This document shows positions 1 through 5,330 of a stretch of DNA of 64,000 bases, in pieces (position 1 is the stretch's first letter; every line of letters starts with the position of its first letter). A program made the translations under genes and the position numbers. The notes beneath the pieces are model-generated. The model was not told the origin of the DNA and searched no databases. It saw only the letters and a program-made list of their open reading frames with translations. The stretch comes from Candidatus Poribacteria bacterium (GTDB lineage Bacteria; Poribacteria; WGA-4E; WGA-3G), in the NCBI GenBank assembly GCA_965215265.1, contig OZ244048.1, positions 1,760,001 to 1,824,000 of the forward strand, read 5' to 3'.

Positions 1-1537
1 CTGAAATATCCGACACTTGCGTATCACTAAGATCCAACTCTTTCAAGTTGGTTGCGGATTGAAGGAAAGTCAGATCGCTAACGTCTGAGCCACTTAGATC
101 GAGGCTTGTCAATTCTAGCAGATTTGCCTGGGTGACAGTCGTCCCCGCGGGGATGTTGAGTTCCTCCCTGATTCCCGCAAGGAGCGCCGCATCCCGAACC
201 GTATTTACAGACACCGTCAGGGCTTCCGAGGCCTGGCTCATGTTGCCCGCTATGTCCACTGTGGCATTCTCAGGCACCGTTATTTCCACATCTCCGTCAA
301 AATTCAACGGCGGCGTGATAGTCGCTCTGTAGACTTTGAAGGCTGCACTGCGTCGTCTCACCTCATTCGATTCATCCGGCTGTTTCATATCGAGGGCATG
401 AAACATCAGATCGGAAACGGTCCAACCGTCGAGTTCCATACCTTCAGAATCCGTAAACACGAAATCTTCTGCTGTGAAGCTATCGTCTCTCGTGGTTTCC
501 GCAATGGTACTTGTCCCTCCGGCACCAGCTCCCGAATTAGAAAACTTGATCTCTATCTCAAAGTCACCTGTTTCAATGGTTTCAGTCGACGGAAATTTGT
601 ACACGAACGTGCTTGCACGGATGGTATCTACCCCGTGTGAATAGGTATTTACCCCGTTTGAAACACTGGGAGCATACACGTAAAAATAACCTGCTCCGTA
701 TCTGGCTTCTGTACTATAGAACCGGGTGGTCGGATGATCTTTCCACCTATTGTTGCCGCCCCATGGAAGAGGATCATCAGTAATCAGGTTGGCAGAAGTA
801 ATAGCAGCCTCCCGTTCTGATTTTATCTGATTCGGCCCTGCTTCTGTCGACCATCCTGCGCCCTGCGTTAGGTCTTCCTCGGCTATAGCAAAGAAACCGT
901 GCCTATCAAGAGCAGTATTTATCCCATTGAAATCGTTATCGTTATCAGCTGAACTGACCTCATACTCAAAGGTTAAGGTTGCACCACCAGCGGTGGTCTG
1001 GTAATACGTATTATCAGCTTGAACTGTATAATGGGAATCGCTGAAAGTGCCAGCTGCTATCCCTGTGAGGGAATCCAAGTTAAGAGAGAACCATCTACTT
1101 GCACCATCGAAGTGCAATTGGAGACGAAGATCCTTATGGACAAACACGTCAACATCGAAAACGAACTGAATTTGAATCGTATCACCGGCGTTATAGAAGC
1201 CAGCCGTTATAGGACTCGCATGAGCCTTATCAGTAGAATAACCTGTCTCCGCATCCACGAGACCCTCAGTCACTAGATGGTTCCCAGCTCTTGCTAAATC
1301 CTGTGAACTCCAGCCCTCATCTCCTCTAAAATTAGCCCAACCTGCATCTTCGGCTGCTTTGTGAAACGTAGCAAACATAGATGTACCAGTATGCGAGGGA
1401 TTATTCACTATAATGTTCTGTAACACAGCTGCTTGAGCGTGAGCAGATGTCGAAATTACCGAGGAGATAAATCCGACACTCAACACGCAAACTAAAAAAC
1501 CTACTAATGATAATGGAAAAGCAAAGTTTCCTTTCAT
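1..1537 (-). CDS. Secreted/surface protein with Ig-like (Big) region and leucine-rich repeats; runs off the window edge
   Basis: Not in the ORF track because it has no stop in the window. Translated by hand from ATG 1537: signal peptide MKGNFAFPLSLVGFLVCVLSVGFISSVISTSAHAQ, then ...ATITPPLNFDGDVEITVPENATVDIAGN... (Ig-like) and LTSLDLSGSDVSDLTFLQSATNLKELDLSDTQVSDIS (internalin-type LRR). Frame checked at start, middle and end. Confidence 0.85.
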   Translation of the reverse strand, partial: MKGNFAFPLSLVGFLVCVLSVGFISSVISTSAHAQAAVLQNIIVNNPSHTGTSMFATFHKAAEDAGWANFRGDEGWSSQDLARAGNHLVTEGLVDAETGYSTDKAHASPITAGFYNAGDTIQIQFVFDVDVFVHKDLRLQLHFDGASRWFSLNLDSLTGIAAGTFSDSHYTVQADNTYYQTTAGGATLTFEYEVSSADNDNDFNGINTALDRHGFFAIAEEDLTQGAGWSTEAGPNQIKSEREAAITSANLITDDPLPWGGNNRWKDHPTTRFYSTEARYGAGYFYVYAPSVSNGVNTYSHGVDTIRASTFVYKFPSTETIETGDFEIEIKFSNSGAGAGGTSTIAETTRDDSFTAEDFVFTDSEGMELDGWTVSDLMFHALDMKQPDESNEVRRRSAAFKVYRATITPPLNFDGDVEITVPENATVDIAGNMSQASEALTVSVNTVRDAALLAGIREELNIPAGTTVTQANLLELTSLDLSGSDVSDLTFLQSATNLKELDLSDTQVSDIS

Positions 1538-1630
1538 TTTATTTAATTCCTCATTTATTTTTTTTGCACTCATTATGCAAAATTTATAACCTTCTGGCTA
1601 AGTTATCGAACCAAAAAACACTTTAACTAT

Positions 1631-1815
1631 ATTATAACACAAACCACGAAAAACGTCAACTTTTTTTCCTGGTTTATCGCACATTTATACAAGCTATCGA
1701 TATAAACTAAAAGACGTTGTAAATATAGGAATGTCTCATTAATTAATTGAATCACAAAATCACTACTATATTACAATACAAATATATTATAACACAAAAA
1801 TCCGGAATATGTCAA
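1631..1815 (-). promoter_or_regulatory. Two tandem sigma70-type promoters for the LRR gene
   Basis: TTGACG-17-TATAAT (1659..1631) and TTGACA-18-TATAAT (1815..1786), both with TG extended -10. Confidence 0.7.
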
Positions 1816-2078
1816 CTTTTTTTATTGAATCCACGTCCGCTGCCCTCTTCTCAGGGAGACACGGCTTGCTGTGCCATCTGACTAATTAGTGACTTTTCAC
1901 CCACCGACTTGAGTCCGGTGGTAAAAAGGGCCAATTGGACTTAATGAGATAACGATGAAAGCGAATTGTAAGTTACGCGCTGAGACACTTTTTTGTTGAT
2001 ATTCAATCCAGAATCTCGCTGCCGATTGATGTCCGAGGGTGGACCTGCGAGCGGGTATCAAGGGACGGCGGCTCTCCG

Positions 2079-2366
2079 TTAGGTGTCGGTGTGGTTGTCA
2101 GCTGCCACCAGCTGTCGGACAAGCTCTGCCCGCACCTCCGCAGATAAATTCTGAATCTCCGCCGGGCGAAGTCCGGCTAACCGCTCATCGGGGCTGAGTC
2201 CTTTGACACGCTCATCGGGGCTCAGCCGTGCTAACATGTCGGCACGCTCTTCGGGAGTGAGTCCTTTCATCCGTTCGGCAGGCGGAATTCTCGCCAGAAT
2301 CTCGGTGCCGAACGTGTCTGCCAATGCTTGCATTTCGGTGTCGTAAAAGTTCTGTCTTTTTCCCAT
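2079..2366 (-). CDS. Stand-alone copy of the Rpn-like C-terminal tail (95 aa, RpnS-like)
   Basis: MGKRQNFYDTEMQ...AADNHTDT, preceded by GGAGATATTACAA-ATG (SD-like). The longer ORF-track start is read-through of the previous copy. Confidence 0.65.
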   Translation of the reverse strand: MGKRQNFYDTEMQALADTFGTEILARIPPAERMKGLTPEERADMLARLSPDERVKGLSPDERLAGLRPAEIQNLSAEVRAELVRQLVAADNHTDT

Positions 2367-2433
2367 TTGTAATATCTCCAATGATGTACGAGGGTGGACC
2401 TGCGAGCGGGTATCAAGGAATAGGGACTCTCCG

Positions 2434-2721
2434 TTAGGTGTCGGTGTGGTTGTCAGCTGCCACCAGCTGTCGGACAAGCTCTGCCCGCACCTCCGCAGAT
2501 AAATTCTGAATCTCCGCCGGGCGAAGTCCGGCTAACCGCTCATCGGGGCTGAGTCCTTTGACACGCTCATCGGGGCTCAGCCGTGCTAACATGTCGGCAC
2601 GCTCTTCGGGAGTGAGTCCTTTCATCCGTTCGGCAGGCGGAATTCTCGCCAGAATCTCGGTGCCGAACGTGTCTGCTAATGCTTGCATTTCGGTGTCGTA
2701 AAAGTTCTGTCTTTTTCCCAT
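2434..2721 (-). CDS. Second stand-alone copy of the Rpn-like C-terminal tail (95 aa)
   Basis: Same protein as 2079..2366; I see one synonymous difference. Same SD. Confidence 0.65.
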   Translation of the reverse strand: MGKRQNFYDTEMQALADTFGTEILARIPPAERMKGLTPEERADMLARLSPDERVKGLSPDERLAGLRPAEIQNLSAEVRAELVRQLVAADNHTDT

Positions 2722-2788
2722 TTGTAATATCTCCAATGATGTACGAGGGTGGACCTGCGAGCGGGTATCAAGGAATAGGGACTCTCCG

Positions 2789-3796
2789 TTAGGTGTCGGT
2801 GTCGTTGTCAGCTGCCACCAGCTGTCGGACAAGCTCTGCCCGCACCTCCGCAGATAAATTCTGAATCTCCGCCGGCGACAAACCTTGAAATGCCTTGACG
2901 CGTTCATCGGGGCTAAGTCCTTTGACGCGTTCATCGGCACTCAGGCGTGCTAACATATCCGCCCGGTCCTGAGGGCTCAAGCGGGCCAGCATGTCCGTGC
3001 GGGCTTCAGCGGGCAGCCGTGCTAACATGTCGGCACGCTCTTCGGGAGTGAGTCCTTTCATCCGTTCGGCAGGCGGAATTCTCGCCAGAATCTCGGTGCC
3101 GAACGTGTCTGCCAATGCTTGCATTTCGGTGTCGTAAAAGTTCTGTCTTTTTCCCATTTGTAATATCTCCATTGATGTTTGAGGGTGGACCTGCGAGGCA
3201 TATCTAAAATAGCGCTCATTTTCTTCTGCAACTAGCTGCCTCACAAACGCACGGAATTGTTCCGCTGATGCCGTAAAAGGCAGCAACAAATAATTCTCTC
3301 GCACCAGTTCCAGCTCGTTGCACACTAACAGATGCACTGGAAACGTCTCCGTTATCTGGTAGTGTCCCGGCTTGACGCGTTCCCATTGTCCCTTGTAATA
3401 AGGCCGCGAGAGCAGTGCGCGAGGGTAGCGGGCGGAGACAATCGTCAAGGTGAGTACCTGCTTTGAAAGCCTGTTATCAGCCAGATAAAGACACGCACGC
3501 GCCTGGATGCGGTAATAGTCGCTCTCTGTCAAAGCGTCGGCTTGACTTTTGAACTCTATGAGATTATGCGTTCGGAAGTAGCGGAAAATCGGCTCTTCGG
3601 CGAGGAGGTTTGCCCGGTCAGCGGTGTCTCGCAAAATCACGCAGATGTCTATCGTGAGAGGCAGGTAGCTGACGGCGAGTTCTGCCTGTATCGGCAGCCC
3701 GAGTCGCTCTCCGAGCTGCGCGTTGAGATTCTGTTTGAAGCACGCATCATAAGCCGCCCGGACACCGCGCGGTTTTTCATCGCCTGCTCTGCGCAT
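2789..3796 (-). CDS. Rpn/YhgA-like PD-(D/E)XK nuclease-fold protein with repetitive helical C-terminal tail
   Basis: N-terminal YDACFK, LPLTIDICVIL and HNLIEFKS motifs (D...ExK); C-terminal L[ST]P[DE]ER repeats; GGAGG SD before ATG 3796. Confidence 0.75.
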   Translation of the reverse strand: MRRAGDEKPRGVRAAYDACFKQNLNAQLGERLGLPIQAELAVSYLPLTIDICVILRDTADRANLLAEEPIFRYFRTHNLIEFKSQADALTESDYYRIQARACLYLADNRLSKQVLTLTIVSARYPRALLSRPYYKGQWERVKPGHYQITETFPVHLLVCNELELVRENYLLLPFTASAEQFRAFVRQLVAEENERYFRYASQVHPQTSMEILQMGKRQNFYDTEMQALADTFGTEILARIPPAERMKGLTPEERADMLARLPAEARTDMLARLSPQDRADMLARLSADERVKGLSPDERVKAFQGLSPAEIQNLSAEVRAELVRQLVAADNDTDT

Positions 3797-3839
3797 AACT
3801 CCTCCATCCTGACTCTCTTTACTTTACTTCTTCTTATGT

Positions 3840-4109
3840 ATTGTAAAAGGGTGAGAAAAAATGTCAACCCATTTTACGTGATGTTGCCTCAAACCGGTTC
3901 GGCAACTCACTTTTAATTAAGTATACCTGCAATGTAAAAAAAATGTCAACTTTTTTCTCTTATATTATGATACCCGCAATCTGAGAAAATTTCAACTCTT
4001 TTTTTTCGAATTCCTGAATCGGTTTCCGTTCCGAAATAAACACTACAGAATTGCACGAATTTTCGAGAGTTAACAATAATATTATATCTCAAGCCCCAAA
4101 GTTTGTCAA
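3840..4109 (-). promoter_or_regulatory. Four stacked sigma70-type promoters upstream of the Rpn-like gene
   Basis: TTGACA-16-TACAAT (3867..3840), TTGACA-18-TATACT (3949..3920), TTGAAA-17-TATCAT (3995..3967), TTGACA-17-TATAAT (4109..4081). Confidence 0.65.
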
Positions 4110-4247
4110 CTCTATTTTCGGTTTTTTTCGGAATCCGGACGCGCTGCCCCGCAAAAACTTGTAAAATATGTGGAATCGGTGTGTTCACAGAAGCATCGGT
4201 CTCCGTATTTAAACCGCAGCGGGTGAGCCGCAGGTGCACCTGCCGTG

Positions 4248-4352
4248 CTACTCCTCCGTTCCATTCTCCGCAGCCAGCAACTGCCGCGCCAGTTTCACAC
4301 GCATCTCCATCGACAAGCCCCGGAGCACCTCCACCAATTCGGCGTGAGACAT
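4248..4352 (-). pseudogene. Diverged remnant of another Rpn-like C-terminal tail
   Basis: MSHAELVEVLRGLSMEMRVKLARQLLAAENGTEE* aligns with LSPAEIQNLSAEVRAELVRQLVAADNDTDT*. Confidence 0.6.
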
Positions 4353-4369
4353 CGCTTTGAAAAATAGAC

Positions 4370-4398
4370 TTGATATTTTAAATTTAACTTGATATAAT
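4370..4398 (+). promoter_or_regulatory. Sigma70-type promoter of the TIR operon
   Basis: TTGATA-17-TATAAT. Confidence 0.55.
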
Positions 4399-4450
4399 AA
4401 TCTAATCTAAACTGAGGTATAATACGAAAACTGCAACCAGAGGTTGTCAC

Positions 4451-4866
4451 ATGAAAAAATATAATCTCTTTATTAGTCATTCGTGGGCCTACGACAATCA
4501 ATATCAAAATCTAATCAATTTGCTTGATGCAAGGCCATATTTCCACTATAGCAACTATTCCGTACCCAAAGACGATCCGCTACATACCAGCGGAACGGAC
4601 CGAGCATTGTATAATGCGATAAAAAATCAGATAACGCCTAGCAGTATTGTGCTGATATTGGCAGGCATTTACGCAAGCTATAGCAAATGGATCGACAAAG
4701 AAATCCAGATTGCACAAACTGAGTACTGGACTCCCAAACCGATTCTTGCTATTGAACCTTGGGGGAGTCAAAATACATCTGCCAAGGTAAAGGAAAGGAT
4801 GCCGCGGATAAAATCGTTGGCTGGAATACGGACAGCATTGTCTCTGCAATTCGGGAGTTAGCGTGA
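4451..4866 (+). CDS. MTH538/ThsB-like TIR-domain protein, frameshifted near the C-terminus
   Basis: YNLFISHSW and SKWIDKEI (catalytic Glu region) motifs. An AAGGA duplication at 4790-4799 shifts the frame; the expected end DAADKIVGWNTDSIVSAIRELA* lies in the other frame (stop 4864-4866). Confidence 0.85.
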
Positions 4867-4868
4867 AC

Positions 4869-5330
4869 ATGGACGGAAAACAGGAATTGCTAGAAATCTA
4901 CAAACTCCACGCGGAACTCGCCAACAGTGTCAGCAAGCAACGGGTTACCGCAAACCGTTTCTATATGCTGGTCTTGTCTGGATTGTCGGTGCTTTTCTCC
5001 GCGTTCCTACAACGCAGAAATGGAGTACCCCTATCGTGGCTCATGATAGGCTTTGGGTTACTCGGTACACTTTTGGCAGCAGCATGGTATATTATCATCC
5101 GCTCCTATCGTCAACTGAATTCTGGGAAATTCAAGGCATTGCATGAATTGGAGGAAAAACTCGCCTATCCGTTTTTCAAACGCGAATGGGAATTGCTGCA
5201 GGAAGGCACAGAACGAAAAACCTATTGGCGACTCACCATTGTTGAGACGTTTGTTCCGGTGATCTTCTTTGTCTGTTTTGCAGTGTTGTTGATAATTGGC
5301 ATTTGTTTACTCTTTATTGACGGAGCCTGA
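4869..5330 (+). CDS. Small multi-pass membrane protein (about 3 TM), RipA/octameric-pore-like candidate effector
   Basis: ELLEIYK...R..ANRFY, two TM helices, W...IRSYRQLNSGKF..LHELEEKL, then a third TM. Directly coupled to the TIR gene. The family name is from recollection of the motif. Confidence 0.75.
   Translation: MDGKQELLEIYKLHAELANSVSKQRVTANRFYMLVLSGLSVLFSAFLQRRNGVPLSWLMIGFGLLGTLLAAAWYIIIRSYRQLNSGKFKALHELEEKLAYPFFKREWELLQEGTERKTYWRLTIVETFVPVIFFVCFAVLLIIGICLLFIDGA

Follow-up and report, generated by a model that had tools for sequence, protein, structure and literature searches.

We analysed a window of 64,000 nucleotides from the genome of a Candidatus Poribacteria bacterium (contig OZ244048.1, positions 1,760,001 to 1,824,000). 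This genome consists of a single 4.83-Mb contig, here called C1. The subject is the stretch at window positions 2035..3796, which holds a nuclease-like gene and the array that follows it. The gene, called the parent below, encodes a protein with a C-terminal tail of helical repeats. Two free-standing copies of the tail-coding part, the cassettes, lie downstream of it, which on the minus strand means at lower coordinates. The array is made up of the following features, given with their open reading frames (ORFs) and Shine-Dalgarno (SD) sequences.

2789..3796, minus strand: parent gene, an ORF of 335 aa; a predicted PD-(D/E)XK-fold domain covers aa 1 to about 205 and is connected by a linker to the helical-repeat tail.
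2792..3157, minus strand: nested tail, a putative small-protein ORF of 122 aa with a conserved head, 12-aa repeats of the xxxRADMLARLx type and a conserved end.
3155..3170, minus strand: internal SD (GGAG, 3170..3167), 9-nt spacer and ATG (3157..3155), the putative internal start of a 122-aa product.
2406..2760, minus strand: cassette 1, a 355-bp unit with 16-mer junction, SD (2734..2731), 95-aa ORF (2434..2721) and 3' spacer.
2051..2405, minus strand: cassette 2, a 355-bp unit with 16-mer junction, SD (2379..2376), 95-aa ORF (2079..2366) and 3' spacer.
1990..2050, minus strand: terminal stub, a fourth 16-mer followed by a decayed, internally deleted tail remnant.

The units of the array were defined by cutting at the 16-mer TCGCAGGTCCACCCTC, which starts at 3196, 2760, 2405 and 2050 on the minus strand. 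This gave lengths of 436 nt for the parent tail and 355 nt for each cassette. A repeat finder returned three sets of repeats: one of 184 nt with copies at 2223-2406, 2578-2761 and 3014-3197 (98-100% identity), one of 300 nt with two copies, at 2027-2326 and 2382-2681 (98%), and one of 139 nt with copies at 2027, 2382 and 2737 (95-100%); repeat spacing in the array was 355, 355 and 436 nt. Chance is not an issue for repeats of 355 bp at 98% identity. Between the two cassettes there are 6 differences in 355 positions: one is a synonymous change in the ORF, and the other five lie within 8 nt of the 3' spacer. Both ORFs encode an identical 95-aa protein, each after TGGAGATATTACAA-ATG (GGAG, 9 nt, ATG). 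Compared with the parent tail, the cassettes have two 12-aa units fewer, a 3-aa indel region and a diverged middle. In the stub, the fourth 16-mer occupies 2050..2035, and positions 2001-2025 are 84% like the tail stretch coding for FGTEILARI. The same stub, together with its downstream flank, follows an array elsewhere in the genome (C1:4104858-4105045). No Rfam family matched at E ≤ 0.1 across window positions 1400-4500. The initial annotation, made from the sequence alone, had described a parent 3' part recurring twice downstream, clean ORFs each with its own GGAG and ATG, the same SD and ATG inside the parent at 3157, copies with fewer repeats than the 122-aa parent tail, and a fourth junction motif plus degenerate stub at the end of the array. 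All of this holds.

The near identity of the units, and the fact that no public contig examined spans the array, would fit an assembly artefact in which a single tail was mis-assembled into three. We regard this as very improbable. The assembly consists of a single 4.83-Mb contig. Indels and the diverged middle set the cassettes apart from the parent tail, the two cassettes are themselves distinguishable by their spacers, and two other loci share the layout with different cassette lengths. In addition, a 151-nt contig of an independent sequencing run (X5) covers 2276-2426, a spacer-to-cassette junction, with 2 differences.

The N-terminal 210 residues of the parent matched no Pfam, NCBIfam or PADLOC model at E ≤ 0.1, Rpn models included. 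An AlphaFold2 model built on a 150-row alignment had a predicted local distance difference test score (pLDDT) of 90.5 and a predicted template modelling score (pTM) of 0.77, with the order helix, three strands, helix, strand (alpha-beta-beta-beta-alpha-beta). An earlier model on a 15-row alignment was poor (pLDDT 61.5) and was set aside. Exhaustive structure comparison of residues 6-202 with VIA-align gave NucS (2vld_B; Z 7.5, root-mean-square deviation 3.0, 100 residues aligned), McrC (6hz4_M; Z 7.1) and AF1548 (Z 6.9), and also Can2, FokI, BglII and NucC; many of the matches listed are PD-(D/E)XK nucleases, at Z 4.7-7.5. The D...ExK residues are conserved in the family representatives that cover each position: D50 in 128 of 130, E81 in 124 of 136 and K83 in 134 of 135. 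We assign the PD-(D/E)XK fold because the match list, in which all Z scores lie below 8, is consistent and because these three residues are conserved. In the model, the predicted long product of the parent consists of a nuclease domain with the PD-(D/E)XK fold and, attached to it, the helical-repeat tail.

To place the domain among known families, we used it in a profile search, which returned 1195 cluster representatives at E ≤ 0.001 and 245 at E ≤ 1e-10. Among 150 scanned representatives, none matched the Rpn Pfam models, two had DUF4351 (PF14261) tails and nine matched TIGR01784 at E ≤ 0.01 (best E 1.9e-8). By coordinate comparison, none of the 26 places in the genome that hold a full paralog is among its 41 TIGR01784 matches. 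Profile-profile comparison with E. coli RpnA/B/C/E (hhalign, against a profile of only 4 rows) gave probabilities of 2.9% and 0.4%, which are not significant; at low stringency the alignment path pairs DxxFK with PHDAVFK and EFKS with EHQS. The nearest clusters in the ESM Atlas are unnamed, and in one of them (score 0.90) 16% of the members carry PF04754, which we take as a lead only. A metagenome scan with the parent gave 79 pattern matches, none encoding a relative. The locus had initially been annotated as an Rpn-like nuclease. The likeness stands for the PD-(D/E)XK fold, the D50/E81/K83 residues, the internal SD and ATG and the repeat-variable tail. Membership of the Rpn family does not: the comparison of the parent with hidden Markov models (HMMs) for Rpn and PDDEXK_2 left the N-domain without a match. 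We read this as a PD-(D/E)XK family whose design is like that of Rpn and whose kinship with Rpn is remote at most.

The tail of the parent (aa 246-318) scores 31.8 bits against Pfam MgtE_N (PF03448), above the cut-off of 25.9, and its modelled structure matches the MgtE N domain and FliG at Z of about 6-6.6 (VIA-align). Unlike MgtE, the protein has no CBS or membrane domain, and it is encoded in an unrelated genomic context. The resemblance probably reflects a generic helical repeat and is likely caused by repeat composition; there is no transporter context here. Neither parent nor cassettes matched DUF4351 (PF14261) in the Pfam scan. No RpnS structure was among the structure matches listed for the tail, which is no sign either way on a difference in fold.

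An internal GGAG(G)-N9-ATG is found at the equivalent place in all 26 paralogs, and AAGGAGGT-N9-ATG in all five loci from other genomes; a methionine at or within 2 columns of this start is present in 82 of the 107 family representatives that cover the site. The SD overlaps a glutamate codon that is always GAG. The preceding residue varies among paralogs (M, L, E) and the preceding codon (ATG, TTG, CTG, GAG or AAG) always ends in G. Downstream of the internal methionine, the length of the tail ranges from 69 to 238 aa among paralogs, and cassettes range from 95 to 170 aa; the repeat unit is 12 aa, and its number varies among both. Judged from its sequence, the conserved internal SD and ATG of the parent would yield a 122-aa tail-only protein.

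The 26 full paralogs of the genome fall into four subfamilies. We compared each paralog, together with its 1.5-kb downstream flank, with itself; tail-only downstream copies followed four of the 26.

Window locus: parent 335 aa, tail 122 aa; two 95-aa cassettes and stub.
C1:4101304: parent 380 aa, tail 167 aa; a 125-aa cassette, then a decayed MGKK-stop copy (C1:4102959).
C1:4103406: parent 290 aa, tail 77 aa; a 170-aa cassette and the same stub as in the window.
C1:3426783: a 45%-identical paralog; a downstream copy beginning at residue 159.

At all three subfamily-A loci with cassettes, the repeat number of the cassette differs from that of its parent. The family was found in two of 21 related genomes searched, namely this genome with its 26 full copies and G004, from another genus, with one. 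It is absent from the sole other genome of the same genus that was searched (95% complete). In G004 the sole family member is directly followed by a 188-nt tail copy of 94% identity that begins at the SD; this copy has decayed, with ATG changed to ATA and a TAG stop soon after. A scan of a genome collection gave five loci, four in Candidatus Poribacteria metagenome-assembled genomes and one weak Lachnospiraceae match; each of the four Candidatus Poribacteria loci is a single gene with no cassette. According to gene calls, four intact free-standing ORFs beginning with MGK[KR]Q (92, 125, 130 and 146 aa) occur in three other assemblies, and one of these resembles the 170-aa cassette of the present genome minus two repeat units. 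By sequence comparison, three independent duplications with three different 5' boundaries are apparent, all starting upstream of the internal start and including it.

These copies could have arisen as neutral by-products. Unequal crossing-over would be favoured by the repetitive 3' end together with the homologous stub, the cassettes would be recent, functionless and decaying, and their intact ORFs would reflect youth and gene conversion instead of selection. The small difference between the two cassettes (only 6 of 355 nt), the decayed copies or stubs at three places and the restriction of copies to four of 26 paralogs are as expected for such a process, and conversion patches could refresh ORFs without selection. 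Against this, intact free-standing ORFs that differ in sequence and in repeat number are found in three other assemblies, and the three apparently independent duplications all include the internal SD and ATG. The ratio of nonsynonymous to synonymous differences (pN/pS) between cassettes of different loci is about 0.12-0.37 over 56 alignable codons, below 0.4 throughout. Moreover, Zhong et al. 2023 (PMC10400941) report that E. coli produces the counterpart protein, YpaA/RpnESs. We consider the neutral explanation rather unlikely.

Two observations concern the surroundings of these loci. A segmental duplication of ~8 kb (C1:1755684-1763796 and C1:4103406-4111463, in opposite orientation) carries, in this order, a subfamily-A gene, cassette(s), stub, a promoter-like site, two large genes and a subfamily-B paralog; the two large genes contain leucine-rich-repeat-like sequence, judged by eye. 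In G004, the gene and its decayed copy are flanked by a 63-nt direct repeat of 98% identity (L034, G004:C1:5312500-5319500, at 3109-3171 and 4329-4391). This repeat is the 3' end of the upstream gene, ArgJ-like by eye, and a further 70 nt are repeated at 76%. Either a long target duplication or insertion by recombination would account for it.

Comparison of the window cassettes with their own parent and with sequence at the C1:4.10 Mb locus gave different nearest relatives for different segments.

Cassette head (141 nt): own parent 99.3%; C1:4.10 Mb sequence 93.6-95.0%.
Cassette end (72 nt): own parent 98.6%; C1:4.10 Mb sequence 93.1-94.4%.
45 nt upstream of the cassette ATG: own parent 92.5%; C1:4.10 Mb cassette 97.8%.
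Cassette middle: own parent 91.2% (34 nt aligned); C1:4.10 Mb gene 97.1%.

The 3' spacer of cassette 2 is likewise a variant seen at paralogous loci. At the level of sequence, the cassettes are shown to be tandem duplicates of the putative nested ORF and to be mosaics that draw on several paralogous tails. In another assembly, the full-length protein P0001 combines an N-domain of the C1:4.10 Mb type with a tail end that, in the present genome, is seen only in the cassette of the C1:4.10 Mb locus. Such a chimera would be the expected product of fusion or conversion between gene and cassette. Mosaic tails of this kind point to ongoing recombination.

The 16-mer at the junctions had been put forward as the place where tails recombine. 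We rejected site-specific recombination at this motif as a general mechanism: it is coding sequence (SQVHP), and the two other duplications use other boundaries. Its 9 occurrences in the genome are confined to the four closest paralog loci. The motif is best described as an inherited 5' duplication boundary of one subfamily and not as a demonstrated recombination site.

Two further subfamily-A paralogs are otherwise rearranged (C1:1734615-1735607, minus strand, and C1:2224913-2225671, plus strand). In one of them, the tail head (TEMQALADTFG.EILERIPPAERMKGL) is duplicated in frame; in the other, about 30 residues are missing and residue 178 is joined directly to the MEILQM motif.

Silent-cassette variation is known from Neisseria pilE/pilS, where an expressed full-length gene lies beside partial 3' copies and gives rise to mosaic products. 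The present locus is similar in that partial 3' copies differing in the variable part lie beside a full-length gene, and in its mosaics. It is conceivable that the cassettes are a dedicated variation reservoir, mainly donors that re-programme the tail and with it toxin/antitoxin specificity, their own expression being incidental. Such a role would be in keeping with the cassette mosaic, the chimeric tail of P0001 and the differing repeat numbers of cassette and parent at all three subfamily-A cassette loci. However, unlike the silent pilS donors, the cassettes are few, just one or two per locus, and keep the SD, ATG and full ORF that a silent donor does not need. No own promoter was found for the cassettes by the promoter scan described below, and in our comparison with pilE/pilS conversion is deduced from mosaicism only. 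No recombinase or specific site is evident, breakpoints differ between lineages, and the 25 other paralogs are equally usable as donors. The loss of rpnSs by fusion of an N-domain to the Ss region, noted by Zhong et al. (PMC10400941), is a further point in favour. We judge a dedicated reservoir improbable. The initial suggestion of swappable tails retains some support from the mosaic cassettes and the chimeric P0001 gene.

We scanned the sequence for promoter-like and terminator-like sites. Four near-consensus sigma-70 promoter-like sites lie in tandem on the minus strand within about 270 nt upstream of the parent, with first hexamers starting at 4109, 3995, 3949 and 3867. The nearest is:

3840..3867, minus strand: promoter-like site closest to the parent start, TTGACA-16-TACAAT (promoter scan).

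Promoter-like sites are enriched, at 11 compared with 3.4 ± 1.6 in shuffled sequence. The promoter scan found no such site on the minus strand within 2000-3800, and the same sequence scan found no terminator-like site between parent and cassettes. Because neither kind of site separates them, we infer that parent and cassettes are co-transcribed. Two further promoter-like sites follow the array (1631..1815, minus strand), and several sites carry an A-tract before TTGACA. The combination A-tract+GTTGAC[AG]+TA[TC]AAT occurs only 20 times in the 4.83-Mb genome, four of these beside subfamily-A loci.

The closest described system is that of the rpn genes. According to Zhong et al. 2023 (PMC10400941), each encodes a toxic nuclease, RpnL, and an antitoxin, RpnS, made from an internal start. 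RpnL and RpnS share a region in which the number of 4-aa repeats is variable, and neutralisation is lost when a single repeat is added. Downstream of rpnE (as ypaA) and rpnC there are second copies, termed rpnSs, which originated independently by duplication; RpnS can also be a separate DUF4351 gene. According to a commentary (PMC10400984), a repeat mismatch blocks inhibition in trans. In the K-12 annotation, ypaA lies 13 nt after rpnE.

The family studied here resembles E. coli Rpn in several respects. A PD-(D/E)XK nuclease domain is followed by a variable C-terminal domain, an internal SD and ATG are conserved and predict a tail-only protein, and repeat number is hypervariable in the region common to the long and small proteins. 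There are many paralogs per genome, with tandem whole-gene duplications, and the occurrence in close relatives is patchy. Alignments also show a shared DxxFK motif near the N-terminus. As with rpnSs, small tail genes have arisen independently just downstream of the parent; as with RpnSs, the cassette ORFs lie immediately 3' of the parent, derive from its C-terminal region and have their own start. The catalytic motif is different, E-F-K here and E-H-Q in E. coli Rpn. Two cassettes and a stub are present, unlike the one small gene of rpnE-ypaA. Free-standing DUF4351 (PF14261) genes are like the cassettes in being small and in corresponding to the C-terminal domain of a nuclease family, but the parent tail and cassettes do not match DUF4351, which is found in 2 of 150 relatives.

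The initial annotation knew of no described externalised RpnS array. Single copies have in fact been reported (rpnE-ypaA and rpnC; PMC10400941), and an externalised tail gene is thus already described. We found no paper on an array of at least two downstream tail genes, although the Supplementary Information of Zhong et al., which lies outside the text available to us, may show multi-copy cases. Nor did we find, beyond Zhong et al. 2023 and the commentary, a paper that treats downstream RpnS copies. What is new is the unmodelled sister family, the 12-residue repeats and the two-copy array.

Taken together, we think it on balance probable that the window contains an Rpn-type gene-within-a-gene nuclease locus of an unmodelled sister family with two externalised copies of the small-protein gene. 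Under this explanation, one illegitimate duplication would have created a short homology between the gene interior and the 3' flank, unequal homologous recombination would have expanded the array, and gene conversion among 5 close paralogs would keep reshuffling it. The cassettes would be co-transcribed with the parent and translated from their own SD and ATG into 95-aa proteins that share head and end with the parent tail and have two 12-aa repeats fewer. By analogy with RpnL/RpnS/RpnSs, tail-only proteins may bind full-length tails and hold the nuclease inactive, with repeat number setting the binding partner. Because the analogy implies both tail binding and a choice of partner by repeat number, the cassettes would be expressed modulators of altered specificity and would also supply sequence for replacing tails, through deletion-fusion or conversion. 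Birth and death would follow, some copies staying intact across strains and others decaying. An amplified antitoxin array, which had been one of the two initial suggestions, does not agree with the Rpn repeat-mismatch rule, given that repeat number differs at 3 of 3 subfamily-A cassette loci. This mismatch argues against simple antitoxin dosage.

Several points weigh against the explanation that we favour. The Rpn mechanism is carried over by analogy only. The N-domain is not detectably Rpn by HMM or profile-profile comparison, the structural matches are moderate, and a Foldseek search of the PDB with the parent model gave no match at E ≤ 0.001. The tail is MgtE_N/FliG-like with 12-aa units, unlike the DUF4351 three-helix bundle with 4-aa units of Rpn. 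None of the 17 subfamily-B paralogs has a cassette, and the decayed copies (the window stub, the MGKK-stop copy at C1:4102959 and the G004 copy with ATA and TAG) mean that duplicates can be neutral. The pN/pS values fit constraint, yet may be confounded by conversion from selected gene tails. Finally, a single assembly underlies the copy number in the window; the short contigs compared here, from four public runs, are too fragmented to span the array, and many of them fit two places.

If the analogy is correct, these loci would extend the gene-within-a-gene toxin/antitoxin design, together with shed tail genes, to a family without a Pfam, NCBIfam or PADLOC model, and the design would be general to the wider nuclease clade and not to Rpn alone. 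The 26 copies, with their 12-residue repeats and with cassettes in intact, mosaic and decayed states, would form a natural series for the study of repeat-number specificity and tail exchange. For annotation, the cassettes are small genes, which automated gene calling at times overlooks or starts too far upstream. A more far-reaching idea, to which we give only a small chance, is that tail repeat number serves as an address code that keeps each of 26 nuclease/antidote pairs private, with the cassettes as a built-in reservoir for rewriting the code. Fusion or conversion with a cassette would then re-key the toxin in one step, a pilE/pilS-like variation device for a defence system, working in a PD-(D/E)XK family that lies outside current defence-system models.

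Two genes on the plus strand neighbour the locus. The first (window 4451..4861) encodes a ThsB-type TIR protein (PF08937, E 2.3e-16; PADLOC ThsB models), and the second (4863..5330), directly after it, an 8xMP octameric membrane protein (PF24838, E 6.2e-35). Lying about 650 bp from the start of the parent gene, they resemble a two-gene defence pair.

The genome also contains a second expanded family, at about 24 places that weakly match the start of TIGR01784 (examples are C1:4188017-4189174, C1:70807-71952 and C1:3218098-3219258; L021-L028). All score below the TIGR01784 cut-off except one (55.9 bits), which passes only when frame neighbours are included. Eight ORFs of this family were read. 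They share the EHQS motif of Rpn and contain runs of 4-aa repeats (GIEQ, GREE) that differ in number between paralogs. Preceding the repeats is a MEVxxMAETMAE motif, reminiscent of the MEILQM found around the internal start in the parent's family.

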